From Anaerolineae bacterium (lineage in GTDB: Bacteria > Chloroflexota > Anaerolineae > VGOG01): 64,000 nucleotides of DNA. The DNA is taken from positions 32 to 64,031 of the forward strand of contig JBAWAP010000280.1 in NCBI GenBank assembly GCA_049589355.1, given 5' to 3'. Positions 13,181 to 64,000 of this stretch are shown one piece after another (within the stretch, counting starts at the first letter, position 1; every line of letters begins with the position of its first letter). The notes below the pieces were generated by a model that did no database searches, had not been told where the DNA came from, and saw nothing but the letters and a program-made list of their open reading frames with translations. The translations under genes and the position numbers were made by a program.

Positions 13181-13260
13181 GTCATTGCGAGGAGCGTTTT
13201 TTGCGACGAAGCAATCTCCTCCTTGCGGCTTGGGGATTGCTTCGCTTCGCTCGCAATGAC
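13181..13260. repeat. Short MITE copy (GTCATTGCGAG..GAAGCAATC..GATTGCTTC..CTCGCAATGAC); near-identical (reverse-complement) copy incl. flanks at 22760-22865
   Basis: Direct comparison. Confidence 0.85.
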
Positions 13261-22843: not shown

Positions 22844-22881
22844 CACGGGCTGAGCAGTTACCCGGAAAGGAGTGAAAGTAT

Positions 22882-31588: not shown

Positions 31589-31640
31589 TAACGACTTTAG
31601 CTCGACATTGTTAAATTCGCTGTCGTAGCCAACAAAGGAT

Positions 31641-31852
31641 GTCATTGCGAGTCTTCCATGGCGCGGTGCGCCATCCGTAGGGGGCAGAAACTTGGGCGAG
31701 GTTCGTAGTAACAGCTTTAGCTGTCGTTTGGCAGCAAAGGCGACTAAAGTCGTCTACGAACCAAGTTTCTGAGTAGCGCAGCGAAGCAATCTCCCGCCTT
31801 CAAATGCAAGCAACGGTGGAGATTGCTTCGTCGCTGCGCTCCTCGCAATGAC
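31641..31852. repeat. GTCATTGCGAG-type MITE copy carrying an internal GTTCGTAGTAACAGCTTTAGC/GACTAAAGTCGTCTACGAAC palindrome; surrounded by further GTAGTAACGACTTTAGTC-type repeats (31592, 31893, 31935)
   Basis: Seen directly. Confidence 0.8.
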
Positions 31853-31968
31853 ACTTGGCCTGGAATCTAACAATGTCAAGTTAGTCGTTAATTGTGAACG
31901 ACTGAAGTCGTTACTACGGCGTTGCTACAACTTGTAGTAATGACTTTAGTCGTTCAAGGAGACCAAAT

Positions 31969-32898
31969 GTGAAGGCGCTTTCCATCCGCCAACCCTGGGC
32001 TGAGTTGATCCTCCAGGGACGCAAGACTATCGAACTGCGCACCTGGCCGACGAGCTACCGCGGCCGCATCGCCATCCATGCCAGCCAGACAGTTCGAGAG
32101 GAGGCTTGCATTGCCTATGGTCTGGATCCGGCCAGAATGGTGCGCGGCGCGCTGGTGGGCACGGTGGAACTGGTGGACGTTTTGCCGCTGGACGAGGCGG
32201 CATGGGAGGCTCTGCGCGATCAGCACCTGTCGTTGAGTGACTTCCCCGGCCCGATGTTCGGCTGGCGGCTGGAGGCCCCCCAACGCCTGCCCCAGCCGAT
32301 CCCCATGCGCGGCCGCATGAGCCTGTTTAATGTGGCCGATGAGGTGATAGCGGGAAAAGCACCACATTCCCCCCTCTCCCAGGGTTGGGAGAGGGGGCTA
32401 GGGGGTGAGGGCTTTGCGCCGCCCAAGGTGACCTATAACACGCGGGCCGATGCGCCGGCCTACGACCCTGAAAAACCCTTCGAGCTGTGGGTGGTTCCCT
32501 GCGATGGCGGCGACTATGGCCTGGCGTTGTATCAGTGGCCCGTGGCGGCCAATCGTGAGATCCCAAAGCCCCAGCGACTGGTGGAGCTGGCTGGCGATTC
32601 GCTGCGGGCTGTGGCCGACCACGTGCTGGAAGCGTTGCGCAAGAGTGACTATAAGGTGACCGACCTGTCTCACAACCGCCAAAAGCCCTTCCGCCTGGAC
32701 GAAGAGACGGGCTTGCGCCTGGGCCTGCTCTTTCTGGCTGTCAAACCATTGACCCGCATGGATCGCGTCGAGGCCATCTCTAGCGGCTTACGCACCATGC
32801 CGTCCGAGGAAGCCTACTATTGGTTCAGCAAGTGCACCGCTGAGGCGAGCGCTGTCAATGCCCAGCGGGCGCTGCGAATTTTGTTGGCTGGAGAGTGA
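31969..32898 (+). CDS. ASCH (PUA-like) domain protein with ~190-aa uncharacterized C-terminal region
   Basis: ..LSIRQPWAELILQGRKTIELRTW.. ASCH signature; GTG start with AAGGAGA RBS. Confidence 0.7.
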   Translation: MKALSIRQPWAELILQGRKTIELRTWPTSYRGRIAIHASQTVREEACIAYGLDPARMVRGALVGTVELVDVLPLDEAAWEALRDQHLSLSDFPGPMFGWRLEAPQRLPQPIPMRGRMSLFNVADEVIAGKAPHSPLSQGWERGLGGEGFAPPKVTYNTRADAPAYDPEKPFELWVVPCDGGDYGLALYQWPVAANREIPKPQRLVELAGDSLRAVADHVLEALRKSDYKVTDLSHNRQKPFRLDEETGLRLGLLFLAVKPLTRMDRVEAISSGLRTMPSEEAYYWFSKCTAEASAVNAQRALRILLAGE

Positions 32899-32969
32899 AG
32901 TGAAGGGAATGACCTGTCCGCTCCCCTGGAGTGTGAGTAGTGAAGTGTTGTTAAATTAAGGAGGATGAT

Positions 32970-33221
32970 ATGTCTGAGCTTTATTCTGTAACCGGCACCC
33001 TGTCGGATGAGCAAACAGTCATACTGGACAGACCTATTCCTCTGCCCATTGGTCGCGTGCGCTTGACCGTTGAAACGTTGCCCGCTGCCAAGCCTGATAG
33101 AACATTCCTCAGCAAGCTGCAGGCAATTCGCCAGGCTCTGCGCGCTAGCGGCTATCGCCCCTGCACCAGAGAAGAAATTGATGCGCAGACTACGCGCCCG
33201 CTATCGCTTCAGAACCCCTGA
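32970..33221 (+). CDS. Hypothetical small protein (83 aa)
   Basis: ORF with RBS GGAGGA; no family recognised. Confidence 0.4.
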   Translation: MSELYSVTGTLSDEQTVILDRPIPLPIGRVRLTVETLPAAKPDRTFLSKLQAIRQALRASGYRPCTREEIDAQTTRPLSLQNP

Positions 33222-33235
33222 CGCAGGAGGCGCAG

Positions 33236-36200: not shown

Positions 36201-36265
36201 ATTTGGAGGTGCCGGTGGAGGAGGAGGCGGGGGCGGTCATACAACAGCTAGGGTTGGACATCTAG
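33236..36265 (+). CDS. DUF1156-family adenine-specific DNA methyltransferase-like protein (1009 aa)
   Basis: N-terminus ..LIESWLPFEAIGAESQRER..LHVWWARRPL.. (DUF1156 hallmark); DPPY motif (..HHICVDPPYYDNVMY..) at ~34901. Confidence 0.75.
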   Translation: MNPPPTLIESWLPFEAIGAESQRERGASSALPPLYFLHVWWARRPLTVSRAAVLAGLLPDFRSLGDFGSLDLRQKFPTEEAYRAWFTRLLGILGDPVTGRKLLARARQVGKKIPNPYEHGRAFTYNPPAEELETMLDLLEQAWGTREITVMDPMAGGGSIPFEALRYGFTVLAGELNPVAAVILKATLDYPARFGPALADDIRRWGKRWYELVKPRLEPYFTPLPPGAEGAAYLWARTVACPTTGKLVPLSPNWWLSKGSDLVAVRLLTNPAWDEPRFEIVRGSPLSLPGRGAGGEGWTFDPDEGTVSRGVGRSPWTGEAIDGDYIKREAQAGRMGQMLYAVAVKKPGGFDFRPHTEEDLAAVRRAEAALAENLPRWEAAGLVPREPFPGGNDPRPLLYGMPTWADFFSPRQLLSLVTFLGALREVGAEMRREMDEERAEAVETYLAFALNKCPNYSSRMSVWHPLRTSMANTFNRHDFSFAWSHGEFDAAHNLLPWAVSQIEDAYKGLAILTVSAQIPLWGSDGGSPVERLQIWQGSATDLSQVESCSVHHICVDPPYYDNVMYAELSDFFYVWLKRSVGHLYPEFFRDTLTNKDDEAVANPARFKALASPSPASPLRLGGTVGGRRGGQGVRDLAKRDYERKMAACFREMHRTLRDDGVLTVMFTHKQVEAWDTLATALIGAGFTIKASWPVHTESEHSLHQAQKNAAASTILLVCRKRADKETRGQGDRETISVSPPHLVSPSQVWWDDIKGRVRQVAREKAAEFAEQGVSGVDLYISTFGPVLSVISERWPVLTSEVDEKTGQPKPLRPETALDLAREEVIALRKRGLLLGRDIQFDPVTDWYLMAWDAFKAEEFPADEARKLAIALGLDIEEDLVRRKRVIGKKGSFVVLQQPKHRRRKHLADPEAVVFDTLLDAAHAAMLIYHEDGPLACESFLKRTGLLTDSTFKACLQALLNAIPRTQIKGRFVRPEADLLERLRMAFFEDLEVPVEEEAGAVIQQLGLDI

Positions 36266-36292
36266 ATCGAACCGAGAAAGGAGTTCACACTG

Positions 36293-36667
36293 ATGACAGA
36301 GCATAAGGTGTTGATACCGGACCAGATGTTTGCTGAATTGATGCCGATATCGGAGCAGGAAGACAAAGAAATCAGCGATCTGGTTATAGAAGCATTGCAG
36401 CGGTATCTTTGGGAGGCCAAAGAACGCAAGATTGACCGGGAAATGGAGGCGTACCGTATGATGCACGCCGAACTGAAAGGACGTTTCCTAGGCGAGTACG
36501 TAGCTATTCACAATGGCGAGTTGGTGGATCACGACACTGATCGCCGTGCCCTGTCTCGACGGGTGCGACGAGAATACGGGAACACGGTAGTGCTCATCAC
36601 CCCCGTCGAGGATGAGCCAGAACGGGAGTTCTTGATGCTGAGTCCTCGATTTGAACGAGGTGTATGA
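36293..36667 (+). CDS. Small protein, DUF5678-like C-terminal domain (124 aa)
   Basis: ..YVAIHNGELVDHDTDRRALSRRVRREYGNTVVLI..; overlaps next gene by 4 bp. Confidence 0.45.
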   Translation: MTEHKVLIPDQMFAELMPISEQEDKEISDLVIEALQRYLWEAKERKIDREMEAYRMMHAELKGRFLGEYVAIHNGELVDHDTDRRALSRRVRREYGNTVVLITPVEDEPEREFLMLSPRFERGV

Positions 36668-37050
36668 TGCGATATCCTTACGACAGTCGTTACCATCCTC
36701 CGATGCCGGTTGTTGAGGTTGCTTTAGGCGTATCAGAGGGCGATTTCCCGTTGGAGCCGCTTCCTAGCATCATAGATACCGGCGCAGACATCACGATCGT
36801 GCCCAGGGAATACCTAATGCGCCTGGATGCACCGGTTGTTGCCAGTGGGTATCTGCGCAGCCCGTGGGGAGGCCGATCCAGTGTCAAGATATACGAAGTC
36901 AACGTGCGTGTCGGGGAACATGACCTGTATGGTGTTGAAGTTGCGGGTGAACCAGGCGGGCGCGAAGTGTTGTTGGGACGTAACTTGTTGAACCAGTTGG
37001 ATCTACGACTGGATGGGCCGAATGAGACCGTGGTTGTATTGTCAGGTTAG
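36664..37050 (+). CDS. Retropepsin-like (clan AA) aspartic protease, 128 aa
   Basis: ..SIIDTGADITIVP.. D-T/S-G-A active-site motif. Confidence 0.65.
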   Translation: MMRYPYDSRYHPPMPVVEVALGVSEGDFPLEPLPSIIDTGADITIVPREYLMRLDAPVVASGYLRSPWGGRSSVKIYEVNVRVGEHDLYGVEVAGEPGGREVLLGRNLLNQLDLRLDGPNETVVVLSG

Positions 37051-37078
37051 CTAGAGTATCTGTCCAAGAAGACCAACG

Positions 37079-40000
37079 ATGAGACTTCGCGATCATGACT
37101 TCCAGATTTCTTATGGCCCGGCCGATGACCGGCTCCACGACTTCTACATTCCGGCCCTGTCGTGCAGTCTGCGCTACGACCGCACGGCTGGCTTCTTTAG
37201 TAGCAGTGCCTTGGCCGTGGCGGCCGCTGGCGTGGCCCGGCTCATCGCCCAGGGCGGTACCATGCGCCTGCTGGTCGGTGCCCAACTGAGCGAAGCCGAC
37301 GTCCGTGCCATCGAGCGAGGACAGGCGTTGGACGAGGTCGTGGCCGAGCGACTGATCGCAGCCCTCAGCGAGCCCGAGGAAGAAGTCATGCAGCGCCGCC
37401 TGGAGGTGCTGGCCTGGATGGTCGCCGCAGGCAGGCTCCAAATCCGCGTCGTGCTCCCAAAAGGACCCGATGGTCACCCCCTTCCTGCATCCGAGGCCCA
37501 GGACTACTATCACCCCAAAGAGGGCCTCTTCACCGACCACTACGGCGACCAAATTGCCTTCAGCGGCAGCATTAACGAATCGGCCATTGGTTGGCAGCGC
37601 AATTATGAGCAGTTCTCCGTCTACTTCTCGTGGAACGCCACGGCTCCATACCTGGCCCAGGTGCGCTATCGGTTCGAGCATCTGTGGAATGGGCAGGAGC
37701 CGGACTGGATTGCGATGGACGTTCCCGAAGCGGCGCGGCAGCAGTTGCTTCGCTATCGCCCGGCCACGGCTCCTACCTGCGACCCGCTGGAGCGCGAACC
37801 GAAACCCAAGGTGGTCGAGCGTCCGGGCGTTTTCGTGCCTGAATTGCAGCATGAGCGTGTCCTCTTCCAGTTCCTGCGCGATGCTCCCCGTCTCCTCAAC
37901 GCCCGATGGCTGGGCGCGGCAACCAGCGCTGTCACTCCGTGGCCCCACCAGGCGCGCATTGCCGATACCATCGTCACCCGTTTCCCGGAGCGCTTCCTGC
38001 TTTGCGACGAGGTCGGCCTCGGAAAAACCATCGAGGCTGGCCTGGTGCTGCGTCAGCTCCTCTTGTCGGGCTACGTTCGCCGTTGCCTGATCCTGGCCCC
38101 TAAATCCGTCTGCCGCCAATGGCAGGAGGAACTCTACGAGAAGTTCGCCCTCAACGTCCCCTTCTTCGATGGCCACACCTTCCGTGACGTGTTCGGCCAG
38201 GAGCATACGCCGGACGTTCCTAACCCCTGGGACGCCGAGGACGTATTCATCGCCTCCAGCCAACTGGCTAAACGGCGCGAGCGCCAGCCGGATCTGTTGG
38301 CAGCTCGCCCGTGGGATCTGATCATCGTGGACGAGGCGCACCACGCCCGTCGCAAGGACTTTCTGGTTCCCCGCTACCGGCCCAACCGTCTGCTGGAGTT
38401 GCTGATGGGACAGGATGAACAGCCCGGGCTGAAAGATCGCACACTGAGCTTGCTCTTGATGACTGCTACTCCCATGCAGATCCATCCGGTGGAAGTGTGG
38501 GACCTGTTGCGGGTCCTCGGCCTGGGCGGTCGTTGGGGTGCTGACGATAGCAACTTCCTGCGCTTCTTCCAGGAGCTGCGTCGGCCTTTCGACGACGCGG
38601 ATTGGGATTTCGTCTTCGGCATGGTGCGCGATTTCCTGGATACGGGCGGGGAACTCGATCCGACATTTGCCAGTCAGGCCGAGGCCAAACTTGGCCTGGT
38701 GGATTGGCAGCGGTTCAAGATGCTGATATCACCTCAGGAACACGAAGCCAGACCCAAGCAGTTGTTGGCTAAGAATCGTGCCCTGGTGATAGAAATGACC
38801 CGCCGGCATACTCCACTGCGCCGGTATCTCTTTCGCAGCACCCGCCGCCTGCTCCGGGAGTACGTGCAGCGGGGCATTCTCAAGGCCAACGTGCCCCATC
38901 GGGACCCTGAGCCAGTCTGGATTGCGATGCGTGCTGACGAGCAGGATCTCTACCACCGGATCGAGGAGTACATCACCCATTTCTACCGAAAGTATGAGGC
39001 GGAGCGCAAGGGGTTGGGCTTCATTATGACCGTTTACCGGCGCCGGTTGACCAGCAGCTTCTATGCGGTGCGCCGCAGCCTGGAGCGGCGATTGGACTTC
39101 TTACGTGGCCAGACTGCCCCTGGCACGATAGCAGGCTTTGATGAAGACGACCTGGAGCAGGAAGACCTGACCCAGGACATCAGCGAGGAACTGGAAGCAG
39201 AGGAAAGGTCCCGCTTCCGTGGCGAGATCGAATACGTTGAGGATTTCCTGGCCGCGCTGCGCAGCTTGAGTGGCAACGATTCCAAGGTCGAGCAGTTGTT
39301 GGCTGACCTGGAGGAAATCTTCAAACGGCGCGAGACGGTCCTCATTTTCACCCACTACACCGACACGATGGACTTCCTACGCGAACAACTGCGGCAGGCA
39401 TACGGCAGCCAGGTGGCTTGCTATAGCGGACGGGGGGGCGAGGTGTGGAACGGCATCGCCTGGGTGCCGACGACCAAGGAGGAAATCAAGAACGCTTTTC
39501 GCCAAGGCGAGGCGATCAAGATTCTCCTTGGCACCGAGGCGGCCAGCGAGGGGTTGAACCTGCAAACCTGTGGTGTGTTGATCAACTACGACATGCCCTG
39601 GAACCCCATGCGGGTCGAGCAACGGATCGGCCGCATTGACCGCATCGGCCAGATGCACAAAAGGGTCTGGATTCGCCACTATTTCTACGAGGACACGGTG
39701 GAGGCCAGGGTCTACCGAGCGTTGGAGGATCGGATCGGTTGGTTTGAAGAAGTCGTCGGTGAGTTGCAGCCGATCCTTGCTCGAATAGGACAAGCCATCC
39801 AGAGCGCGGCCATGACGCCAGTGGCCGAGCGGGAGCAGGTGTTGACGCGAGAGTTGGAACAGCTACGGGAAGGGGCAGACACCCGACAGGCCGAGGGCCT
39901 TGACTTGGAGCAGTACCTGATCGCTGATGAGCCGTTGCTGGAGTCCACTTCTCCCGTCACCCTGAGCGACCTGGAGCGGGTGCTCACGCGGACATCGTCC

Positions 40001-40819
40001 CTGGTGGATCGTTTCCAACCGCATCCAAAATTCAAGCGGGCCTACTGGCTACGAACCGATGAGGGTGGCGCGGCTGTGACCTTCGACGTGGCCTTGTTTG
40101 ATGCCCACCCCAACACCTTGCGGTTGCTCACGTACGGAAGTGAGCTGCTGACGGCCCTGCTGAAGGCTGTGTCGGAGCCGGCTTCTGGCCCTGAGGGGCG
40201 TGTGCTACGCTGTTGGACGGAAGGCCCCCTGCCTCTTTGCGGCTACTACACCCTTGGCGCCAAGGGTCGCCCGCAGCGGATTGAGCGCCTGGCGGACCTC
40301 GAAGTACTCTATGCTGCGGACCCACATGCGCATTGGTCGGAAGAAGCCATAGCAACAGCGCGCGCCGACTTTCGGCGAGAGGTGGAGACACTGGTGCAGC
40401 GACGGGCGCAGGTGATCGCAGGCCGGCGGCGAGCAGAGCGTCTGGCGCTGGAGGAGCAAGCGCGCCAGACGCTGCTCCAGGCAGCGCTGGTAGAGCTGGC
40501 CATGGGGCAGCAACTCCAACTGTTCGCGGAAGAAGCACTGCCTGTGGCCTTCACCGAGGAAGCGATCACCGGCCTCAAGCGCCATGGTTATCCCTTTGCA
40601 CCATTGCTCAGGCTAGTCAATGTGGATGGCTTGCGGCCCAGCCCCACCGACCCGTTTTACACCGCGGTGCAGGGTAAATCACGAGAAGCCCTCAGGGGCC
40701 ACTTCAACGCGCTGCGGGACGAAGCAGTCCGGCTCTTGGGCCTGCTGGCAAGTGCTCCGGATCAGGAGGAGTCCTCCCAGGACATACAGGATGTCGTTGT
40801 GCAGACATTAGTAGTTTGA
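37079..40819 (+). CDS. PLD-like nuclease domain fused to SNF2-family helicase (1246 aa) with ~370-aa uncharacterized C-terminal region
   Basis: N-terminal HxK(x4)D (..HPKEGLFTD..), ATPase motif I ..LCDEVGLGKTIEAG.., motif II ..IIVDEAHHARR.., helicase-C ..LNLQTCGVLINYDMPWNP..QRIGRIDRIGQ.. Confidence 0.8.
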   Translation: MRLRDHDFQISYGPADDRLHDFYIPALSCSLRYDRTAGFFSSSALAVAAAGVARLIAQGGTMRLLVGAQLSEADVRAIERGQALDEVVAERLIAALSEPEEEVMQRRLEVLAWMVAAGRLQIRVVLPKGPDGHPLPASEAQDYYHPKEGLFTDHYGDQIAFSGSINESAIGWQRNYEQFSVYFSWNATAPYLAQVRYRFEHLWNGQEPDWIAMDVPEAARQQLLRYRPATAPTCDPLEREPKPKVVERPGVFVPELQHERVLFQFLRDAPRLLNARWLGAATSAVTPWPHQARIADTIVTRFPERFLLCDEVGLGKTIEAGLVLRQLLLSGYVRRCLILAPKSVCRQWQEELYEKFALNVPFFDGHTFRDVFGQEHTPDVPNPWDAEDVFIASSQLAKRRERQPDLLAARPWDLIIVDEAHHARRKDFLVPRYRPNRLLELLMGQDEQPGLKDRTLSLLLMTATPMQIHPVEVWDLLRVLGLGGRWGADDSNFLRFFQELRRPFDDADWDFVFGMVRDFLDTGGELDPTFASQAEAKLGLVDWQRFKMLISPQEHEARPKQLLAKNRALVIEMTRRHTPLRRYLFRSTRRLLREYVQRGILKANVPHRDPEPVWIAMRADEQDLYHRIEEYITHFYRKYEAERKGLGFIMTVYRRRLTSSFYAVRRSLERRLDFLRGQTAPGTIAGFDEDDLEQEDLTQDISEELEAEERSRFRGEIEYVEDFLAALRSLSGNDSKVEQLLADLEEIFKRRETVLIFTHYTDTMDFLREQLRQAYGSQVACYSGRGGEVWNGIAWVPTTKEEIKNAFRQGEAIKILLGTEAASEGLNLQTCGVLINYDMPWNPMRVEQRIGRIDRIGQMHKRVWIRHYFYEDTVEARVYRALEDRIGWFEEVVGELQPILARIGQAIQSAAMTPVAEREQVLTRELEQLREGADTRQAEGLDLEQYLIADEPLLESTSPVTLSDLERVLTRTSSLVDRFQPHPKFKRAYWLRTDEGGAAVTFDVALFDAHPNTLRLLTYGSELLTALLKAVSEPASGPEGRVLRCWTEGPLPLCGYYTLGAKGRPQRIERLADLEVLYAADPHAHWSEEAIATARADFRREVETLVQRRAQVIAGRRRAERLALEEQARQTLLQAALVELAMGQQLQLFAEEALPVAFTEEAITGLKRHGYPFAPLLRLVNVDGLRPSPTDPFYTAVQGKSREALRGHFNALRDEAVRLLGLLASAPDQEESSQDIQDVVVQTLVV

Positions 40820-55350: not shown

Positions 55351-55773
55351 CTATTGATTACTATAGTGTGAATCCAGGTAATCTTGCAGGATCACCGCCG
55401 CAGCTACGGCGTCAACTCTCTCCTGTTTCTTCTCGCCTCTCAGGCCCGCTTCCTTCATCAGCCTTTCAGCACTGACCGTGGAAAAGCGCTCATCCCATAA
55501 TAGCACCGGTACAGTAAGAGCCTTAGCCAAATCTGCGGCATAGCGCTCTACCCTCTCGGCCTGCGCCCCAGCCATCCCGTCCAGACTCCTAGGGTAGCCA
55601 ACTACAACCTTCTCTACCTCGTACTCCTCTATCAATCGAGCCACGATAGCAAAACCTTCCTGACGAGAGCCCCCCTGGATAACTTTTAAGCTACGAGCAA
55701 GAGTCTGACTCAAATCGCTGATGGCCACGCCAATGCGCTTCTCCCCAACATCCAAGGCCAAAACACGCATCAT
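55351..55773 (-). CDS. ruvX: Putative pre-16S rRNA nuclease / Holliday junction resolvase-like YqgF
   Basis: MRVLALDVGEKRIGVAISD.., ..LWDERFSTVSAERL..; the start at MMRV (55773) abuts the upstream gene end. Confidence 0.85.
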   Translation of the reverse strand: MMRVLALDVGEKRIGVAISDLSQTLARSLKVIQGGSRQEGFAIVARLIEEYEVEKVVVGYPRSLDGMAGAQAERVERYAADLAKALTVPVLLWDERFSTVSAERLMKEAGLRGEKKQERVDAVAAAVILQDYLDSHYSNQ

Positions 55774-57215
55774 TCCTCCTGGACCAAGACACTGATACGG
55801 AAGCCAAGCCACGGCATCCGTCCTGGCCAAGTGGGTGTGACCTCAATGATAGGGGCTTCCTCCAGGCGCAAGTTCTGACTCAGATAGTCCTCGGCCCAGT
55901 CCAAAGGTCGGCCCCGGATGGACTCTTTGACGGCACTCACATCAATCTGGGCCACTGTTGAGCCAGATCCTCTTACAACGAAGGATACTTTCCCATCCTC
56001 AATGCTGGTGATCTCGCCTCTCTGATATTCCAAGCCTTGGCTCGCCAATGCGAAACCATCTCGCATCTCAGCTTTGAGGGCTGCCTCGATCAGGGCATTA
56101 GCATCCTCCTCCTCAATGGCTATCCCGCCAAACATCACTTCCATCTCCAGGGTGAGAATGTCGGCCTGCTCCTCGACGAACTTGTCATACATTTCAGTCA
56201 CAATATGATCCACAGCCACGGACTCGGAGGACAAAAACTCCCCTTCCCCGAGCTGCTCGCTCAGCCGAGTCTGGACTCCCTGCTGTAATTGCTGCAAGAG
56301 TACGGCTTTGAGACGCTCCTGATCGGCAGTAGTGACCATCCCCACCTGCTTGACGCTGCCTCCCCGCATTTGCTCGGGATTGGTGACCTTAACTTGCAGG
56401 GAGAGAGGCCCCTCAACACTATTAATCAAGTTGGCCCCGACGTTGCCGCTGGGGCCCGGATCAATAGCGACCACCTCCCCCTCAACTGTGCCCCCTACTG
56501 TCTCTGGCAAAGTAACGTCCTCAACGGTAGTAAACCTGATAGTAGATCCGGTTGAGGTAGCGACCACAGTCCCTTTGGGAACGGTAACTGGCTGGTTTAT
56601 CTTGTTCACGAAAAGGACTTTCCCTCCAGCCGGCTCATCAGGGGCATCTTTTGTTCCAGTAGTAGGAATCTGAGCGGTTCCCTCGATCTGAGCTTTTACC
56701 ACCCGGGCTGGGATCTGGCCTGTCTCATAGTTGATCCTTTCCAACTCAGGGTCGGCTTGAACCTGCAGTGTTGCATTAACCGCCTCACCAGCCGGGACCA
56801 GAATGACCTCAGCGCTAGGCACGATCAAAAGAGCACTCGCCAATAGAGCCGAGAGGGCTACGACAAAGACAAAAGCAGCAAATATGCGCTCCCCCCAGCT
56901 CAAGCGCCTCCCCTCCCTCGGAATTGCCTTCGGTCTGCGCCACTTGGCTTTCTGGCCCCGCGTCGCCGAAATGAAGACCGAGAAGCCCAACTGACGAGCC
57001 AGAACCCGTGTCTTGCTGGCCTTGGTGACAAGAGCTACCTCCAAGGCCAGAGACTCCGCGTAACGTTGAAGCAGCTTCAAATCGAGCAAGCTGTCGAAGG
57101 CTTGACATCCTGGCGGCACGACCAGAAGCACCCGTGGGGCCTCGGCCTTTTCTAGACGGGCGCGCAGGGTAGTGATATCGTCGTCAACTTCCAGGTGAAT
57201 AACCTGTGTCATCAA
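55770..57215 (-). CDS. Hypothetical membrane-anchored protein (481 aa) between alaS and ruvX
   Basis: ORF with a single TM (~aa 115-140); no family recognised. Confidence 0.4.
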   Translation of the reverse strand: MMTQVIHLEVDDDITTLRARLEKAEAPRVLLVVPPGCQAFDSLLDLKLLQRYAESLALEVALVTKASKTRVLARQLGFSVFISATRGQKAKWRRPKAIPREGRRLSWGERIFAAFVFVVALSALLASALLIVPSAEVILVPAGEAVNATLQVQADPELERINYETGQIPARVVKAQIEGTAQIPTTGTKDAPDEPAGGKVLFVNKINQPVTVPKGTVVATSTGSTIRFTTVEDVTLPETVGGTVEGEVVAIDPGPSGNVGANLINSVEGPLSLQVKVTNPEQMRGGSVKQVGMVTTADQERLKAVLLQQLQQGVQTRLSEQLGEGEFLSSESVAVDHIVTEMYDKFVEEQADILTLEMEVMFGGIAIEEEDANALIEAALKAEMRDGFALASQGLEYQRGEITSIEDGKVSFVVRGSGSTVAQIDVSAVKESIRGRPLDWAEDYLSQNLRLEEAPIIEVTPTWPGRMPWLGFRISVLVQEE

Positions 57216-59956
57216 CTGAGACCCTCCGCAACCAGATCGGGCACCAGGCGCAGGGCCTCCCCGATGCGACCCGTGTCCCGGCCGCCAGCCTGGGCCAAAG
57301 TGGGCTTGCCTCCCCCACTGCCACCAACTACCTGAGCAACCTGCTTTACGAGCTGACCGGCATGGAGGCCCCGCTCCACCAAATCGGAGGTGATAGCAGC
57401 CACAAAACTGGGCTTAGAAGCCATCACCGCCCCCAAGACAATAACTCCAGACCCCATACGGTTGCGGAACCAGTCACTCATCTCCCGCAAGGTATCCATG
57501 TCGGCCACTTCAACCTGAGCAGCTAAGACCTTTACACCACCCACATCCTGCACCCGAGAGAGCAGTCCCTCAAAATCCCGGTGGGCGATCTCCCGACGTA
57601 GGCTGGCAACCTCCTTGCTCCGTTCCTGAAGTTCATCCAGAAGCGCCAACAGCTTTCGATCAACCTCATCGGGAGAACAGCTAAGGAATGCCGCGCTGGA
57701 TTCCAAGACCCTCATCCGTTCCTGTACCAACTTTTGGGCAGCCCGGCCCGTAAACGCTTCGATTCGACGAAGGCCCGCTCCGATACTCGATTCTGATGCA
57801 ATATGGAAGGACCCAATCTCGCTGGTCCGCTTAACATGGGTGCCACCGCAGAGCTCCTGGCTGAAAGGCTCACTGGGATCACCGATTTTGAGCACCCGCA
57901 CCCGCTCACTGTACTTCTCGCCAAACAGAGCGATGGCCCCTTCGGCGATGGCCTCCTTGTAGCCACTATGGATTACCTCCACGGGGTAGTTGGCCAGGAT
58001 AGCCTCGTTGACCAACCGCTCGACTTCGCTCAGTTCGTCCTGGGTGAGCATGGCCGAATGGGTGAAGTCAAAGCGCAGGCCACCTGGACCCACCAGGGAG
58101 CCAGCCTGCTGGACGTGCTCGCCCAGGACACAGCGCAGAGCATTGTGCAAGAGGTGGGTGGCAGTGTGGTTGCGGGCAATGTCCATGCGCCGTTCGGAGT
58201 CCACCACGGCCTGGGCGCTGTCGCCCACCTGGGGCGTGCCCAACCGCACCTCCCCGATGTGGACGATGAGTCCTGGGAGCGGCTGTCGGACATCGCTGAC
58301 TGCAACCTCCCACCCAGGCTCTCCTTCCCCATCCTGAACGATCCGGCCGGTATCACTAACCTGACCGCCACTCTCCACGTAGAAGGGAGTCGCAGTCAAC
58401 ACCAACTCGACTTCATCGCCCTCCCGCGCCGAGGCAACTACCTGCCCAGCCCGTACTATGGCCGCTACCTTCGCCTTGGCCCCTGTCCTCTCCCCGTAGA
58501 CATGCTCCACCCCAGCCTCAGGCAGCCTTCCTGCCCGCTTCAATTCATCCAGAAGATCGCTGTAGACTTCTAGCTCCTTTCCCTCTTCAAAGGCAAATTG
58601 CTGAGCTGCCCGAGCCAGTTCCCGCTGTTTCTCTAGTGCCGCCGCGAAGCCCGCTTCGTCCACGGTGAGTCCGCGCTCTTTGGCTACATCCCTCGTCAAG
58701 TCCAACGGGAAGCCATAGGTATCGTAGAGCCTAAAAGCCTGGTCACCCGGAATCACGGCCTCCCCCTGCTGGCTCAGCTCAGCAACCAGCTCATCTAGCA
58801 AAGTAAGCCCCACATCCAGCGTGCGCTGAAAGCGTTCTTCCTCCTGGGTGATAGTCTGCAGGATGAACTCCCGCCTGGCCTCTAGCTCGGTGAAGTAGGG
58901 TCCCATAGTTTCGATAACCACCTTGGCGATCTCGCCCAAGAACGGGCCTGTGAAACCGATCTTCCGGCCGAAACGGGCAGCGCGACGCAGGATCATCCGT
59001 AGCACGTAGTTGCGCCCCTCGTTGCCTGGCAGCACCCCATCGCCCACCAAAAAGGTCACTGCCCGCCCATGGTCCGCGATGACCCGATAGCCAACGATGT
59101 CCGCCTCGCGCTCAGCGTCACTGTGACCAAGCATTTCCTGAATACGAGCCATGACGGGAGCAAACAAATCAGTGTCGTAATTGGAAACGACGCCCTGCAA
59201 AACGGACACCAGTCGCTCAAAGCCCATGCCCGTATCAACGTGCTTGGCAGGCAGTTCGTACAGGGTCCCCCTATTATCCTTGTTGTACTGGATGAAGACC
59301 AGGTTCCACAGCTCAAAAAAGCGCCTACAGTCGCCGTTCACACCGCAAACGTGATTGGGATCATCTCGGCAATCACATGCCTCCTCTCCCCTGTCGAGGT
59401 GGATTTCACTGCAGGGCCCGCAGGGGCCGGTATCACCCATTTCCCAGAAATTATCCTTGCGTCCGAAGTAGAGGATGTGCTCAGGGATTATGTCTGTCAC
59501 CTGGGCCCAATAGCGAGCCGCCTCCTCATCGGTTTCCAACTCGCCTTTTTCGTCCTTGAACACCGTGGCCCAGAGCCGGTCCTTGGGCAACCCCCACACC
59601 TCGGTGAGCAGCTCCCAAGCCCAGGCGATGGCCTCCTTCTTGTAATAATCACCGAAGGACCAATTGCCAAGCATCTCAAAGAAGGTGTGGTGATAAGTAT
59701 CGTATCCTACATCCTCCAGGTCATTATGTTTACCGGAAACCCGCAAGCATTTCTGACTGTCTGCCGCCCGCCTGTACTCTCGCTTCTCTAAGCCCAGGAA
59801 GATATTCTTAAATTGATTCATTCCAGCGTTTGTGAACAGCAGCGTAGGATCATCGCCGGGCACCAGCGAGGCGCTGGGCACTATAGCGTGCCCCTTGCTG
59901 GCGAAAAAATCCAAAAAGCATTGCCTGATCTCCGTGCCGGTCATAGACATAGCCAA
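57212..59956 (-). CDS. alaS: Alanine--tRNA ligase
   Basis: ..FTNAGMNQFK.., ..HHTFFEMLGNWSFGDYYK.. class II AlaRS; 914 aa. Confidence 0.95.
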   Translation of the reverse strand: MAMSMTGTEIRQCFLDFFASKGHAIVPSASLVPGDDPTLLFTNAGMNQFKNIFLGLEKREYRRAADSQKCLRVSGKHNDLEDVGYDTYHHTFFEMLGNWSFGDYYKKEAIAWAWELLTEVWGLPKDRLWATVFKDEKGELETDEEAARYWAQVTDIIPEHILYFGRKDNFWEMGDTGPCGPCSEIHLDRGEEACDCRDDPNHVCGVNGDCRRFFELWNLVFIQYNKDNRGTLYELPAKHVDTGMGFERLVSVLQGVVSNYDTDLFAPVMARIQEMLGHSDAEREADIVGYRVIADHGRAVTFLVGDGVLPGNEGRNYVLRMILRRAARFGRKIGFTGPFLGEIAKVVIETMGPYFTELEARREFILQTITQEEERFQRTLDVGLTLLDELVAELSQQGEAVIPGDQAFRLYDTYGFPLDLTRDVAKERGLTVDEAGFAAALEKQRELARAAQQFAFEEGKELEVYSDLLDELKRAGRLPEAGVEHVYGERTGAKAKVAAIVRAGQVVASAREGDEVELVLTATPFYVESGGQVSDTGRIVQDGEGEPGWEVAVSDVRQPLPGLIVHIGEVRLGTPQVGDSAQAVVDSERRMDIARNHTATHLLHNALRCVLGEHVQQAGSLVGPGGLRFDFTHSAMLTQDELSEVERLVNEAILANYPVEVIHSGYKEAIAEGAIALFGEKYSERVRVLKIGDPSEPFSQELCGGTHVKRTSEIGSFHIASESSIGAGLRRIEAFTGRAAQKLVQERMRVLESSAAFLSCSPDEVDRKLLALLDELQERSKEVASLRREIAHRDFEGLLSRVQDVGGVKVLAAQVEVADMDTLREMSDWFRNRMGSGVIVLGAVMASKPSFVAAITSDLVERGLHAGQLVKQVAQVVGGSGGGKPTLAQAGGRDTGRIGEALRLVPDLVAEGLS

Positions 59957-60427
59957 TTCCCCCCTGCAAACTTCAATTACGCTAATACCGTCATTTTAGC
60001 CCAAGTTAGCCATAATGTCAAACCAATTCGCTCTCTACTTCCCGCTAAGCTGAGCTTCTGAGCCATTTTGAACTGCTTTGTGGCGCATACTATACTACAT
60101 ATAGTAGCTTAAATGACGATTGAGCCACTACATACTGTAGTACATGAGCAGACTAGCAGAGACCAGAGTTTGCTCGATTCTCTGTAAAATTGGCTCTTGT
60201 CATTTTAGCTATTTTATGGTATAATTATGTTGATTTGTACGACCTCAATGAGATTGTGCCGGTTTGCTTGCACTCCTGAGAAATTTAGAGAATGGCTGCA
60301 AAACATGGCCGTGCCATTGCGTTTAGGATGAGTAACGAGCAACAAGTGACGAGTGACAAGTATGCCCCGTTCCTCGTTGCAACGTTGACTCGTTAACCCA
60401 TCACTTCCTACTTGAGGTTTTGCTGAG

Positions 60428-63400
60428 ATGAGATACGATGACTTCGAACTGCTAGTAACGAAGGACGGCGCCGACCAGTATTCCACGCGAGTGATATCGG
60501 CGAGCGCAGGTGAGGCGAAGGGGACCCTCGCCTTCAACTCCACCTACGACGACATTCAGCGTGCTCTGGCAAGGATCAAGGCCGAGGAGACCGATGAGGA
60601 ACTCTTCGTTAACCTTGGCCGTACGCTCTTCCAGCACCTATTTAGTGACGAGATAGAGAGCATCTACAGAGCTAGTCTGGGACACGCTAGAGCTCAAGGA
60701 AAAGGTCTGCGTATCAGGCTCAGAATTGAACCGCCCGAACTTAGCGCCATCCCCTGGGAATATCTCTACGATGAACTGAACGATCTCTTCTTGGGTGTCT
60801 CACCGGAAACGCCCGTCACTAGGTACATCCAAGTGGCTGAGCCTCCCCGCTCTATCACCATCCATCCTATACTTAAAGTGCTAGTGGTCATTTCTAACCC
60901 TGTCAACCTGGCTGAATATGGTCTGCGGGAGCTGAATGCCGAGAAAGAGAAACAAGTCCTGAGTCAGGCCTTGGAGGAATGGCAAGAGGAGGGCCTGGTG
61001 GAGTTGGAATTCCTCGATCATGCCATCGCCAGCGAAATCCGGGAGAAACTGCGTCGGTATCAACCGCACATTTTCCACTTTATCGGGCACGGTGCCTTCA
61101 GGGACGATACAGGGTACCTGGTTATTGAGGACGATGATCGCCGATGTCGCTTGATCAACGACAGAACCTTCCGCAAGTTCTTCCTTGGCAGCGACTTCAC
61201 CAAGCTCGTAGTTCTCAACGCTTGCCAGAGTGCGACCACGTCATCAACACAACCCATGGTTGGGCTAGCCCACAATCTAGTGCGCCGAGGGCTGCCTGCC
61301 GTGGTAGCTATGCAATACAGCATCTATGATGACACAGCCATCAAGTTCTCCAGGGAGTTCTATCGTGCCCTGGCCCTGGGTTTTCCCGTGGATACCGCCA
61401 TATCTGAGGCTCGCAGGGGAATCTACATCGACTGTGGGGCGGAAAGACGAGACTGGGGCATCCCTGTGCTCTTCATGAGATCGCCAGATGGGGTTATCTT
61501 GAAGCTACCCAAACCCATCTCCAGGCCCTTGCGATTGGAATCCATCCCCAGGAGTGGCAAGTTCATTGGGAGGAAGAGAGAACTCGATGAGTGCCAAGCG
61601 AAGCTTGATTCTCAGAACATACTTGTCATTGGGGGTACGGCGGGTGTCGGCAAAACCATGCTGGGCGCTCAGATAGCGATTCAGCACCCCCAAAGGAGAG
61701 TCTTCTGGCATACCTTCCATAGAAGCTTGAACGATAACTTGGAGTCGGTCATCTGGGCTCTAGGAGGATTCCTAACGACAGGCGGGGATGACACGCTGCA
61801 GAGATTTCTCGATCTCAATATCGAACAACTGAAGGAGGAGGGATATCAGCTAAGTGAGGCCCTCAACCTCCTCATCTACAGCCTAGAACAGGGCCTTTAC
61901 CTGCTGTGCTTCGATGACTTTCAGGTAGCTGATGAGGACGAGAAGATCAATTCCTTGTTTGAGATATTCAATGACCGACTGCAAAATACCAAAGTCATAG
62001 TGATGAGCCGCCAGGCACCTCGCTTCGCCGATGCACTCGGCCTAGACTATGAACCTCTAACAGGTCTCAATGAAGAGGACGCCAAAGCATTGCTCAACAG
62101 AGATGGTATCCATCTGAATCCAGAGCTTTTCGCCAAACTCTACGCTCAGACCCTAGGAAACCCTAAGCTCCTAGAGTTATTCATCACCTGGATGCAGAAT
62201 AGAGAATGGAAGAGCGATGAGATCAGCGAGTTTATAGACCGAACACTTGGGGAAAGGGTGGAAGAGCATCTGATCAGGAACGTTTACGAAGCCCTGTCAG
62301 CAGAAGAACAGAAACTACTAAAAGCAATCTCTATCTTCAGAGCCCCCGTGGACAAAGAGGCAATTGGGGAAATATTGATTGAGGAAGACATGGAGAACAT
62401 TGATGATCTCCTGGACGCTCTTGTACACAAGTATGTGGTACAAGAATCTGACTACGGGGAGAAATTCCTCCATTCCCTTCTGGTAGAGTTCTGCTATGAC
62501 AGGCTCAGGGCAGATGCGCCCTTTAGAACAAGATTACACAGGAATGCAGGACGATATTACCATGGCCAAGAAGACTATCTTGAGGCAGCACACCACTATT
62601 TCGAAGCAAGGGAATACCAGAAATCGGCCGAAGTCATCATTGATAACTCAGAGCAACTGATCTACGCTGGTCAATCCAGTGCGATAATGGGACAACTGGG
62701 AAAACTCGACTCCGAACTGCTAGATGCAGAAACCTGGGCATCAGTCTGCATAGCTATGGGTGATGCTTGTATGATAGCAGGTGAATACGATGACGCTGTA
62801 GAAAGCTACCAGGCCATTCTGGAAATCGAGCCGCGTCTGCTGGGTCCCCGAAAAGCAGCAGATGTCCGACGAAAGATTGGCGAAGGCTATGACAGAAAAG
62901 GACAATATGATCAAGCCCTAAAGCACTACAATGAAGGAATCCAAATATTGGGTGAGAATGTGTCAGTCGAGTTGGCAAGAATCTATGGGCGACTCAGCCG
63001 GATTTATGCCCATCAAGGAGAATACGAAAAAGCGATCGAAAGTGCCCGGCAGGGCCTCAAAATAGTCAAAGGAACGGGGTATGAAAAGGAGATCTCAGAT
63101 TGCTACGATGCTATCGGGCTGGTCTATTTGCGAAAGGGTGACTACGATAAAGCTATTCAGCATTATAGGAAAGCCCTCAAGGCAAGGGAAAGGATTGGAG
63201 ACAAGCTTGGGCTGGCGCGATCTTACATTCAACTTGGAATCGCGTGCAAATTCAAGGGTCAATATGATAAGGCACTCAAGTACTACACGGACAGCCTGAC
63301 AACCTCTGAAGAAATCGGCGATCTAATGCGCATTGCTGTCTCCCACGGCGAACTAGGCTTTATCCAAGATATCAAGAGCACCTATGACGAAGCAATCTGG

Positions 63401-63970
63401 CACTACAATAAGGGTCTTACATTGTTCAATAGGCTAGGGAACAAACCTCTGGCCGCAATTACACATAACAACTTAGGAGAGGCTTACAGAGGCAAAGGTG
63501 AATATGACAAGGCAATTGAACATCTTAAGATGGCGTTGAAAATGTACACTGATTTCGAGGATAAAGAGGGTTTGTCTGATGTGTATAGAATCCTCAGCGA
63601 AATCAATCTACGCCAAGGCGATATACACCAAGCACAAGAATATGCCCAAGAAGCGCTCCAATTGGCGGCTGAGATCGACTCCAAACCCTACAAGGGTTGT
63701 GCCTACAGAGCACTTGGAAAAATCCAGGCAGCGACGAAGAATACCGACGAGGCTAGAAGGTATCTGGATCTATCTCTAGACATGTTCAGGCAACTTGGTG
63801 ACAAAGCGGAGATAGCGTACACGCTAAACGACATAGCGAACTTTGAGTACGATGCGGGAGACACCAAAACGGCAAGGGAGGTATGCACTGAGGCCCTCAA
63901 GACGGCCGAGGCGTTAGGGATAAGTAAGATCATTGAGCAGATGACCGAACTGAAGCAAAAGTTGGCTTAG
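60428..63970 (+). CDS. CHAT (caspase-like) domain - STAND/NB-ARC-like P-loop NTPase - TPR repeat protein (1180 aa)
   Basis: CHAT His/Cys (..HFIGHG.., ..VVLNACQSA..), P-loop ..LVIGGTAGVGKTML.., >10 TPR-like repeats in the C-terminal 500 aa; locus is markedly AT-richer than neighbours. Confidence 0.7.
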   Translation: MRYDDFELLVTKDGADQYSTRVISASAGEAKGTLAFNSTYDDIQRALARIKAEETDEELFVNLGRTLFQHLFSDEIESIYRASLGHARAQGKGLRIRLRIEPPELSAIPWEYLYDELNDLFLGVSPETPVTRYIQVAEPPRSITIHPILKVLVVISNPVNLAEYGLRELNAEKEKQVLSQALEEWQEEGLVELEFLDHAIASEIREKLRRYQPHIFHFIGHGAFRDDTGYLVIEDDDRRCRLINDRTFRKFFLGSDFTKLVVLNACQSATTSSTQPMVGLAHNLVRRGLPAVVAMQYSIYDDTAIKFSREFYRALALGFPVDTAISEARRGIYIDCGAERRDWGIPVLFMRSPDGVILKLPKPISRPLRLESIPRSGKFIGRKRELDECQAKLDSQNILVIGGTAGVGKTMLGAQIAIQHPQRRVFWHTFHRSLNDNLESVIWALGGFLTTGGDDTLQRFLDLNIEQLKEEGYQLSEALNLLIYSLEQGLYLLCFDDFQVADEDEKINSLFEIFNDRLQNTKVIVMSRQAPRFADALGLDYEPLTGLNEEDAKALLNRDGIHLNPELFAKLYAQTLGNPKLLELFITWMQNREWKSDEISEFIDRTLGERVEEHLIRNVYEALSAEEQKLLKAISIFRAPVDKEAIGEILIEEDMENIDDLLDALVHKYVVQESDYGEKFLHSLLVEFCYDRLRADAPFRTRLHRNAGRYYHGQEDYLEAAHHYFEAREYQKSAEVIIDNSEQLIYAGQSSAIMGQLGKLDSELLDAETWASVCIAMGDACMIAGEYDDAVESYQAILEIEPRLLGPRKAADVRRKIGEGYDRKGQYDQALKHYNEGIQILGENVSVELARIYGRLSRIYAHQGEYEKAIESARQGLKIVKGTGYEKEISDCYDAIGLVYLRKGDYDKAIQHYRKALKARERIGDKLGLARSYIQLGIACKFKGQYDKALKYYTDSLTTSEEIGDLMRIAVSHGELGFIQDIKSTYDEAIWHYNKGLTLFNRLGNKPLAAITHNNLGEAYRGKGEYDKAIEHLKMALKMYTDFEDKEGLSDVYRILSEINLRQGDIHQAQEYAQEALQLAAEIDSKPYKGCAYRALGKIQAATKNTDEARRYLDLSLDMFRQLGDKAEIAYTLNDIANFEYDAGDTKTAREVCTEALKTAEALGISKIIEQMTELKQKLA

Positions 63971-63990
63971 AAACAGCCTGCTGTTTCTAA
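63966..63990 (+). terminator. Perfect 10-bp palindrome TTAGAAACAG-CCTG-CTGTTTCTAA overlapping the stop of the CHAT gene
   Basis: Seen directly. Confidence 0.5.
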
Positions 63991-64000
63991 GCCAGCACAT

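Follow-up and report, generated by a model that had tools for sequence, protein, structure and literature searches.

Are all NLR-like proteins of bacteria immune receptors, or can some of them belong to the stable core of a genome? The question is raised by a single gene near the end of the stretch of DNA analysed here (the window), 64,000 nucleotides of an Anaerolineae bacterium of the phylum Chloroflexota (assembly GCA_049589355.1, contig JBAWAP010000280.1, positions 32 to 64,031 of the forward strand). It covers nearly all of this 64,031-bp contig, which belongs to a metagenome-assembled genome. The gene lies next to alaS and encodes a protein of 1180 amino acids (aa) in which a caspase-like CHAT protease, a STAND NTPase and a tetratricopeptide repeat (TPR) sensor are predicted to follow one another. 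Fusions of caspase-like proteases with STAND sensors are the bacterial counterparts of the logic of apoptosomes and inflammasomes, and few of them have been studied. An earlier note on this DNA had described an AT-rich, horizontally acquired gene behind operator-like palindromes, which might code for a single-gene immune sensor and effector. Our results retain the architecture and favour a role in conflict or immunity, but they change the picture of the locus. The window protein is no architectural novelty. It is a clean case of a predicted NLR-like receptor whose gene behaves like a stable core gene and not like a mobile defence gene, with fixed synteny, a divergence like that of AlaS, a constrained sensor and an invariant promoter.

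Domain architecture and predicted catalytic competence

The length of the open reading frame (ORF) and the three motifs named in the earlier note, HFIGHG, LNACQS and GGTAGVGKT, can all be read in the translation (coordinates in Table 1). The context of the start codon, ATGAGATACGA(T/C)GACTTC, is kept among orthologues and the sequence 5' of it diverges. NCBI holds a record of an identical protein, 'MAG: tetratricopeptide repeat protein [Anaerolineae bacterium]', despite which an exact-protein look-up of the window protein returned no record.

Domain searches support the CHAT and TPR assignments of the earlier note. The Pfam CHAT family (PF12770) matches residues 63-337 with E=3.1e-29 and 102.8 bits for a cut-off of 24, and the TPR array (residues ~770-1165, about 10 TPR pairs) is matched by TPR_12 (E=6.5e-59) and TPR_MalT (E=3.6e-23). 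We then have two lines of structural evidence. A profile of 36 family members, used to search the PDB, matched the SAVED-CHAT chain 8tl0 with its N-terminus (E=1.6e-26). The N-terminal protease of an AlphaFold2 model, computed with 87 homologues, retrieved the same chain with Foldseek (E=5e-9), in line with a caspase-like fold. The model has a mean predicted local distance difference test score (pLDDT) of 86, its helix pairs are regular in the arm and TPR part (pLDDT of at least 90), and the linker at residues 361-368 is the sole disordered stretch. Neither the Pfam matches nor the model suggest a signal or membrane segment, in an analysis that included no dedicated signal-peptide prediction.

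The conservation of individual residues is consistent with an active enzyme. In 87 of 87 homologues, at identities down to 27%, H217, H221, C266, R329, G403, G406, G408 and K409 are invariant, and D496 is nearly so. K409 is also nearly invariant over 101 relatives of the NOD. From what is known of the CHAT family, the dyad of His221 and Cys266 is predicted to be the catalytic pair.

The assignment of the P-loop domain was less direct. All Pfam NTPase models remained under their gathering scores (AAA_16 with 27.1 vs 32.6, nSTAND3 with 22.6 vs 27.2, ATPase_2 with 22.4 vs 33.2; AAA_22 was also among the models listed), and the NCBIfam MalT model, despite its E-value of 3.4e-17, scored 61.8 bits for a cut-off of 537. 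Yet the family profile matched PH0952 (6mfv) at residues 374-702 with E=2.6e-55 and MalT (8bob) at residues 378-780 with E=6.4e-16. The best PDB match of the model was again PH0952 (Foldseek, E=2e-21 over 724 columns), and MalT 8bob was matched with a TM-score of 0.77. These sequence and model matches place the domain firmly among the STAND NODs of the MalT/PH0952 superfamily, outside the curated Pfam and NCBIfam subfamilies listed above, and so uphold the P-loop STAND NTPase of the earlier note. Considering the profile matches, the fold of the model and the invariant residues together, the protein reads as a predicted, catalytically competent caspase-like protease joined to a MalT/PH0952-type NOD with its arm and to a TPR sensor.

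Composition, synteny and inheritance

The gene is indeed richer in AT than the alaS flank. Its GC content is 0.498 (0.564 at third codon positions, GC3), and the 38 larger ORFs of the window have a mean GC of 0.579 (sd 0.043) and a mean GC3 of 0.677 (sd 0.079). It ranks second-lowest in GC within the window, and genes at 43-52 kb have a similar GC3 (0.54-0.62). The amino-acid composition accounts for part of this deficit: the GC content at second codon positions (GC2) is 0.356, and K, I, Y and N are commoner than in AlaS. Low GC is also common to all orthologues: in four other loci their GC3 is 0.60-0.64, and that of alaS and DUF6541 is 0.70-0.74.

The sample of the orthologue clade comprises about 12 loci and about 26 protein clusters that are 71-92% identical and almost all ~1180 aa long, below which identity falls to 33%. 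All orthologous loci with enough flank share one gene order: yceG, ruvX, a Baseplate_J-like gene and alaS on the minus strand, then a C11 peptidase gene (see below) and the CHAT-STAND-TPR gene on the plus strand, followed by a convergent DUF6541 gene. The other neighbours in the window are likewise housekeeping genes, coding for a HflX-like GTPase, a peptidase S41, an amidohydrolase and a pyrimidine-nucleoside phosphorylase. When the window is compared with locus L005, the protein is 79.8% identical, and AlaS, RuvX and the Baseplate_J-like protein are 83.7%, 83% and 74% identical, respectively. The synonymous divergence (dS) of the gene is 0.634 vs 0.642 for alaS, and its ratio of nonsynonymous to synonymous substitution rates (dN/dS) is 0.17 vs 0.14. 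Within the protein, the TPR part evolves fastest in this comparison (72.2% identity, vs 85.8% for CHAT, 80.8% for the NOD and 84.7% for the arm). Against the closest relatives dN/dS is 0.135-0.154 overall and 0.18-0.21 in the TPR part, where it spans 0.17-0.22 across comparisons. The gene, its TPR sensor included, is thus maintained under purifying selection.

The horizontal acquisition that the earlier note derived from base composition is not borne out, at least as a recent event, since the synteny with the alaS block is fixed, dS equals that of alaS and the low GC is shared by the orthologues. At most, the gene may have been inserted long ago, in the ancestry of the clade: two sister loci, at 66% AlaS identity, keep the alaS block, and the 1-4 kb that could be read upstream of it contain neither a CHAT nor a C11 gene. 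These loci are outside the clade, as are all the relatives among the matches listed in a metagenome scan with AlaS, none of which exceeds 66% identity. Among 80 loci taken from a scan over 185,579 GTDB species representatives, only three (L010-L012) bear orthologues. With the sister loci that lack the gene beside alaS, this indicates that the gene is clade-restricted and not universal. In a collection of 2.9 million viral contigs, 60 stretches fitted the search patterns and a single one of these encoded a relative, at 26% identity.

Two minor features of the neighbourhood and of its composition can be mentioned here. The Baseplate_J-like gene is a 481-aa ORF (55770-57215, minus strand) with a weak match (E=2e-8), placed between ruvX and alaS and overlapping both by a few bases; its position is kept in all relatives, even in the sister loci with 66% AlaS identity, which is odd within a housekeeping operon. 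The lowest GC of the window belongs to an ORF of 159 aa without Pfam match (20542-21021, minus strand; GC 0.467, GC3 0.48), in a local GC trough at 20-22 kb.

The upstream region and the relic of a deleted gene

The earlier note described the sequence ahead of the gene as a noncoding stretch of 430 bp. There is an upstream spacer, but it is 471 bp long (59957-60427) and it carries recognisable features, namely sigma-70-like promoters and the relic of a gene (Table 1). Alignments with relatives reveal a variable segment (about 60030-60180), followed by a block, CTTGTCATTTTAGC..TTTTATGGTATAAT, that contains the promoter at 60197-60225 and is nearly invariant across 7/7 aligned loci. We infer that this is the promoter of a pair of genes in the relatives. 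Indeed, in most of them the CHAT-STAND-TPR gene comes second, behind a gene of ~4.2 kb that encodes a clostripain-like protein of 1400-1440 aa (CLIPPER and Peptidase_C11, with an N-terminal signal anchor). This C11 gene is present ahead of the CHAT gene in L001, L002, L005, L006, L009 and L010-L012. The single-gene reading of the earlier note is therefore not supported: most relatives carry a pair behind one conserved promoter, of which the window has lost the first member.

The relic of the C11 gene is visible at the DNA level only, by alignment with the alaS-C11 spacers and the C11 3' ends of relatives. A tblastn search with the relatives' C11 protein gave only noise in the intergenic region and in the whole window, with no C11 homologue. 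L007 does not conserve the 34-codon ORF at 60292-60396, which is a chimeric relic. Since the 5' codons of C11 and the spacer that follows the C11 stop codon in relatives abut in the alignment of the window, the ~4.2-kb C11 gene has been deleted in this lineage, which leaves the CHAT gene directly behind the conserved promoter. The junction is the same in L007, which carries a 92% identical orthologue. In L008 (89%) it is different, the C11 ribosome-binding site being fused directly to a GTG start. The upstream neighbour differs in both loci. The two junctions suggest either two separate deletions of C11 or a secondary one. The deletion left the sensor gene under constraint, as dN/dS between the window and L007 is 0.135 though both lack C11. 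What remains between promoter and start codon is a leader of ~200 nt. A scan of 59800-64000 at E<=1 gave no Rfam match, and so no known riboswitch or small RNA in the leader, and the predicted fold of 60232-60440 is only modestly stable relative to shuffled sequences (z = -1.8).

Table 1. Coordinates of the gene, its predicted domains and the features of its upstream region
Feature	Position	Strand	Basis
Divergent sigma-70-like alaS promoter, TTGACA-17-TAAAAT	59993..60021	-	11/12 consensus; kept in relatives with alaS upstream
Palindrome 1, TACTAT-N7-ATAGTA, containing CTAC-ATATA-GTAG	60088..60106	.	Sequence
Palindrome 2, ACTACA-TAC-TGTAGT	60127..60141	.	Sequence
Sigma-70-like promoter, TTGTCA-17-TATAAT, with TG extension	60197..60225	+	11/12 consensus match
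C11 gene relic: start codon and first codons (MAAKH; MAGKH in L009), decayed ribosome-binding site just 5'	60292..60324	+	Alignments
Former C11-to-CHAT spacer, now in the ~200-nt leader; long imperfect hairpin	60325..60427	+	Aligns 3' of the C11 stop in L006, and with L007
Coding sequence, 1180 aa: CHAT protease, STAND NTPase, TPR sensor	60428..63970	+	ORF list, translation
Residues 1-360: small N-terminal beta domain and CHAT (clan CD, caspase-like) module	60428..61507	+	Pfam, PDB profile, Foldseek
His221 codon, predicted catalytic histidine, in HFIGHG (H217-G222)	61088..61090	+	Invariant in 87 homologues
Cys266 codon, predicted catalytic cysteine, in LNACQS (L263-S268)	61223..61225	+	Invariant in 87 homologues
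Residues ~370-700: STAND NOD of MalT/PH0952 type (P-loop nucleotide-binding domain, helical domain, winged helix)	61535..62527	+	Profile, Foldseek
Walker A/P-loop GGTAGVGKT, residues 402-410	61631..61657	+	G403, G406, G408, K409 invariant in 87 homologues
Walker B LLCFDDF, residues 491-497	61898..61918	+	C494, D496 nearly invariant
Residues ~700-1180: helical arm and TPR sensor array	62528..63967	+	Pfam, model

The palindromes that the earlier note regarded as operator-like are present, but little about them resembles an operator. One could imagine them as the binding sites of a dedicated repressor that silences a toxic gene: two related sites (CTACATA-NN-GTAG) lie 33 nt apart in the spacer, and they are half of the CTAC-N5-GTAG sites in all 64 kb, which number four for an expectation of 0.9; the alignment of the window with L007 shows them slightly better conserved than their surroundings. 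We nevertheless consider such a repressor very improbable. Palindromes in general are not enriched in the spacer. There are 8 with arms of 5 nt vs 4.2 +/- 2.5 in dinucleotide shuffles, about 10% of which reach 8, and 3 with arms of 6 nt vs 1.1, a number reached by about 12-13% of the shuffles. The predicted start site (near 60232) is about 90-140 nt downstream of the two sites, which are found between the divergent promoters, overlap neither and are clear of the -35 and -10 boxes. They are inside an indel segment (~60071-60180) that only the window, L007 and, in diverged form, L001 possess; it is absent from L008, L005/L006, L002 and L009, where promoter and gene are kept. In L007 each palindrome has lost pairing through one uncompensated change in an arm (palindrome 2 reads ACTGCA-TAC-TGTAGT), and both are degraded further in L001. 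Finally, no regulator gene is adjacent. Low GC and short AT-rich palindromes were misleading at this locus, where the presumed operator region is mostly the scar of a deleted 4.2-kb gene.

Two other sequence features flank the gene. An inverted repeat, GAAACAG-CCTG-CTGTTTC (7-bp stem, no T-run), directly follows the stop codon at 63971-63988. It may serve as terminator hairpin both for this gene and for the convergent DUF6541 gene, which is located past the end of the contig. The 11-mer GTCATTTTAGC occurs at 59990-60000, in the -10 region of the alaS promoter, at 60199-60209, in the -35 region of the C11/CHAT promoter, and in inverted orientation at 60107-60117. This recurrence could reflect chance, a promoter duplication or a shared binding site.

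Module shuffling in the wider family

Beyond the orthologue clade, the two halves of the protein have different partners. Many phyla have the N-terminal module (residues 1-360), at identities of 35-56%. A pattern scan of one genome per GTDB species, covering 600 candidate stretches, showed that at least 529 encode a relative. In these relatives the CHAT module is fused to EAD7, SIR2_2, Hsp70, AAA, PAS, PD40 or plain TPR, and some short forms are followed by separate genes for nSTAND1-WD40 or nSTAND1-TPR proteins. Searched alone, the NOD-arm region matches 2603 representative proteins at E<=1e-3 and 199 at E<=1e-30, with 30-40% identity. The position of the P-loop among these relatives ranges from residue ~27 to ~476. 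Ten N-termini, picked by hand as an illustration and not as a census, included DUF4062, TIR_2, protein kinase, BTAD, caspase C14, EAD7 and HTH domains. CHAT proteins (P0108, P0113) and NOD-TPR proteins alike can carry EAD7. The resulting pair, CHAT-EAD7 and EAD7-NOD-TPR, resembles the fused receptor divided over two proteins, consistent with the logic of effector-associated domains (EADs) described by Kaur et al. (PMC7159879, PMC8195603). Such recombination of effectors and sensors is the signature of NLR-like conflict systems.

Small Trypco1 (Pepco) genes of ~110-130 aa were seen upstream of short CHAT-module genes in L074, L076, L077, L082 and L084. It has been demonstrated that Trypco/Pepco proteins form pores upon activation by a protease (PMC12642450). 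EACC1 and Trypco genes, when sought upstream, were found only beside a few short CHAT-module proteins and beside none of the present orthologue group.

Comparison with known systems

The architecture of caspase-like protease, STAND and TPR is not new, as it has been described computationally for two decades and there is now one experimental example. Ktedonobacter racemifer, also a member of Chloroflexota, has an Avs12 with a fused caspase-like protease; a phage protein acts as the trigger, and the pore-former EACC1 is the protein that is cleaved (PMC12642450). The TPR sensors of Avs proteins bind single phage proteins, after which they oligomerise (PMC13581612). The window protein shares with KrAvs12 and the Avs group the N-terminal caspase-superfamily protease, the central STAND NTPase and the C-terminal TPR-like sensor (PMC12642450, PMC13581612). 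It would also be expected to share their logic, in which the binding of one protein ligand leads to oligomerisation and then to proteolysis. The link of this architecture to cell-death and antiphage signalling, made in the earlier note, is supported. There are differences from KrAvs12 too. The gene has C11 or its relic upstream and no EACC1 or Pepco, and the protease module is larger than that of KrAvs12, the catalytic cysteine being predicted at position 266 and not at 152. Unlike the Avs, the gene lies outside a defence island and is vertically inherited, with a conservation like that of AlaS. The tripartite layout of effector, NTPase and sensor is that of Avs, but the defence-island or patchy mobile distribution is not observed. 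In PADLOC-DB v2 (2023; Avs5 and above were described later), no Avs/AVAST model matched at E<=0.1, and the only match in the NTPase region was PDC-S73 (1e-5, residues 378-421).

The closest matches in sequence and structure over residues ~370-780 and beyond are PH0952 of Pyrococcus horikoshii and MalT of Escherichia coli. As the organisation of NOD, arm and TPR is common to them, the same double autoinhibition by arm and sensor is implied (PMC6468293). The difference is in the output: MalT has a LuxR-type DNA-binding domain and responds to maltotriose and ATP, whereas the window protein would act through its N-terminal protease, and Pfam lists no DNA-binding output (HTH, GerE, BTAD, Trans_reg_C) for it. 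It is thus not MalT proper, as the low NCBIfam score (61.8 vs 537 bits) also indicates. The conflict systems of Kaur, Burroughs, Iyer and Aravind (2020/2021) resemble the family in several respects: numerous partners are found for the CHAT module as well as for the NOD, EAD7 connects CHAT and NOD-TPR proteins, Trypco1 precedes some relatives of the module and filamentous phyla such as Chloroflexota are enriched (PMC7159879, PMC8195603). They differ in that their function was predicted from genomic context only, and the orthologue group of the window has the fused form, without EAD, EACC1 or Trypco.

Several other candidates were rejected. The two-gene module of EACC1-caspase and Pepco does not apply: C11 or its relic lies upstream, a convergent DUF6541 gene lies downstream and there is no small EACC1 or Trypco gene. 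SAVED-CHAT and Csx29, both from type III CRISPR systems, contain a homologous CHAT domain with the same His/Cys dyad and a protease activated by assembly or conformational change. The PADLOC model SAVED_CHAT matches residues 178-319 with E=9e-15, in its CHAT part only (profile positions 115-251 of 498). However, their activators are a cyclic oligoadenylate (SAVED) or target-RNA-bound Cas7-11, and both lack a P-loop NTPase. Moreover, the order in the window protein is CHAT-NTPase-TPR, whereas the TPR of Csx29, the TPR-CHAT protein of Craspase, is N-terminal, and neither an adjacent CRISPR-Cas system nor a SAVED domain is present. The bNACHT proteins were set aside because NACHT (PF05729) is not among the best 25 of the 41 Pfam families at E<=0.1, and PH0952 and MalT are closest structurally.

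HetF is a cyanobacterial CHAT protein of cell division and heterocyst formation. The likeness consists of a CHAT domain and a conserved chromosomal gene in a filamentous bacterium, but HetF itself lacks STAND and TPR, and the window protein scores 86.2 bits with the NCBIfam equivalog for a cut-off of 1200.

Proposed mechanism and biological role

We propose, with a probability of roughly 60% for molecular model and role taken jointly, that the protein is a cytoplasmic NLR-like switch with a caspase-like protease as output and a role in conflict or immunity. Work on PH0952 and MalT established how STANDs with a TPR sensor are autoinhibited and activated (PMC6468293), and we follow this scheme by analogy. 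At rest, the NOD would carry ADP, and its contacts with arm and TPR sensor would hold it shut. Autoinhibition would end when the TPR superhelix binds a specific ligand, in all likelihood a protein, allowing the exchange of ADP for ATP at the P-loop and oligomerisation. This would gather the N-terminal CHAT domains, so that the His221/Cys266 site becomes active by proximity and cleaves one or more substrates in trans. Since no EACC1, Pepco/Trypco or gasdermin gene adjoins, the target may be encoded elsewhere or be a general cellular protein. The outcome would most likely be growth arrest or death of an infected or damaged cell of this filamentous bacterium. As for its history, the gene is an old vertical resident that was once second behind a secreted C11 protein, until C11 was deleted in this genome. 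Cleavage in trans and the biological role are inferred, as are, by homology, ligand gating, oligomerisation and substrate. The data described above show the domains and their fold, the conserved catalytic residues, the synteny, the C11 deletion and the selection regime.

A number of observations weigh against this proposal. PADLOC-DB v2 (2023) assigns the protein to no named system, its CHAT part matching SAVED_CHAT and its TPR part generic TPR models. Within the sampled orthologue clade the gene has none of the features usual for defence genes. Its position is fixed among housekeeping genes (alaS, ruvX, yceG, hflX-like, peptidase S41). The length is steady at about 1180 aa, the rate of evolution is near that of AlaS (80% vs 84% identity) and no diversification of the sensor is seen, the TPR part having a dN/dS of 0.17-0.22. 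Relatives were encoded in just 1/60 of the candidate stretches of the viral collection, and no cognate substrate or effector gene is adjacent, unlike the situation of KrAvs12 and EACC1. Lastly, the NOD family includes transcription regulators, with BTAD and HTH N-termini, which means that the chassis is not specific to immunity.

An endogenous regulated protease is the alternative to be taken most seriously. The gene would then encode a lineage-core STAND switch whose TPR domain perceives a self-derived signal, such as a metabolite, a stress-damaged protein or a developmental cue. Its CHAT protease would process cellular proteins and so act, in a HetF-like manner, on cell division, filament differentiation, programmed death under stress or envelope remodelling. 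The vertical inheritance with a fixed housekeeping neighbourhood in all orthologous loci seen, a conservation near that of AlaS at equal dS, a sensor that is itself under purifying selection and a strong, invariant promoter all fit this possibility, as does the co-oriented position behind a secreted peptidase gene in relatives. The NCBIfam model of HetF gives one of the better matches (E=1.7e-24, residues 60-352), and modules of EACC1 and protease fused to DnaK-like domains have been suggested to serve stress responses (PMC12642450). Yet a score of 86 bits for a cut-off of 1200 points to shared CHAT homology only, the wider family displays the swapping of effectors and the EAD and Trypco partners typical of conflict systems, and the gene is clade-restricted, with three orthologue loci among the 80 mentioned above and the sister loci without it beside alaS. 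We regard an endogenous protease as possible, if on balance doubtful.

A related and more specific idea starts from the neighbours. Full-length homologues in independent Chloroflexota lineages repeatedly adjoin co-directional genes for secreted repeat proteins of 1100-2500 aa, from families as different as C11/CLIPPER, LRR-fn3-LamG, FG-GAP, PKD/TSP3, sortilin/BNR and P_proprotein (L013, L015, L017, L083, L091-L093 and the orthologue loci). Proteins of at least 1000 aa make up 7/35 of the immediate neighbours vs 3/152 of the other genes of the same loci (one-sided Fisher p=4e-4, with no correction for phylogeny or for how common giant genes are locally in these genomes), and 3/93 and 11/808 in the comparison sets of short CHAT-module proteins and control alaS loci, respectively. 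The gene might then be the functional partner of an adjacent giant secreted protein, ancestrally C11, whose precursor it would monitor or process or to whose export it would respond, and the copy in the window would be an orphan. That one conserved promoter precedes the C11-CHAT pair is also in line with this. However, we sought a conserved partner among the giant neighbours of distant homologues and detected no homology between them, so no common interaction surface is evident. The partners have signal anchors and are probably extracytoplasmic, and, as noted above, no such segment is suggested for the sensor. The loss of C11, with one junction in the window and L007 and another in L008, left the sensor gene intact and under purifying selection, which means that a functional link, if there is one, is not obligatory. 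We find a partnership of this kind improbable. A broader version, rather unlikely in our view, is that the protein is a domesticated, lineage-core 'bacterial apoptosome', retained at a single chromosomal position, under purifying selection like that of AlaS, across a clade of filamentous Anaerolineae. It would answer an endogenous or envelope cue and not phage proteins, and would maybe be linked to the giant secreted neighbours. If true, bacteria would here use an NLR-like protease switch for physiology and not for immunity.

Other elements in the window

Three large co-directional genes at 28538-40819 (plus strand) form a candidate defence system of the Hma type (helicase, methylase, ATPase). 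In PADLOC, they match a DUF499 ATPase (HmaC, E=3e-96), a DUF1156 adenine methyltransferase (HmaB, E=3e-74) and a 1246-aa SNF2/ResIII helicase similar to BrxH, DrmD and HmaA (E=1e-61 to 3e-79), and a 309-aa ORF without PADLOC match lies between the first two genes. The region is the most GC-rich part of the window (0.62-0.65). It lies 20 kb upstream of the CHAT-STAND-TPR gene, to which it is not adjacent, and was readily recognised by the same PADLOC library.

The intergenic region at 31588-31969 is densely filled with units of ~20 nt (GTAGTAACGACTTTAGCTCG and variants) in both orientations, and it also contains a hairpin element of ~85 nt (AGCGAAGCAATCTCC...GGAGATTGCTTCG) with the flanks GTCATTGCGAG/CTCGCAATGAC. 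Partial copies are found at 13179-13219 and 22721-22846, and a 93% identical copy is present in the C11-CHAT spacer of another genome (L001/L011; L001 9903-9985). The element looks like a small dispersed repeat, REP- or MITE-like, that is shared among these Anaerolineae.

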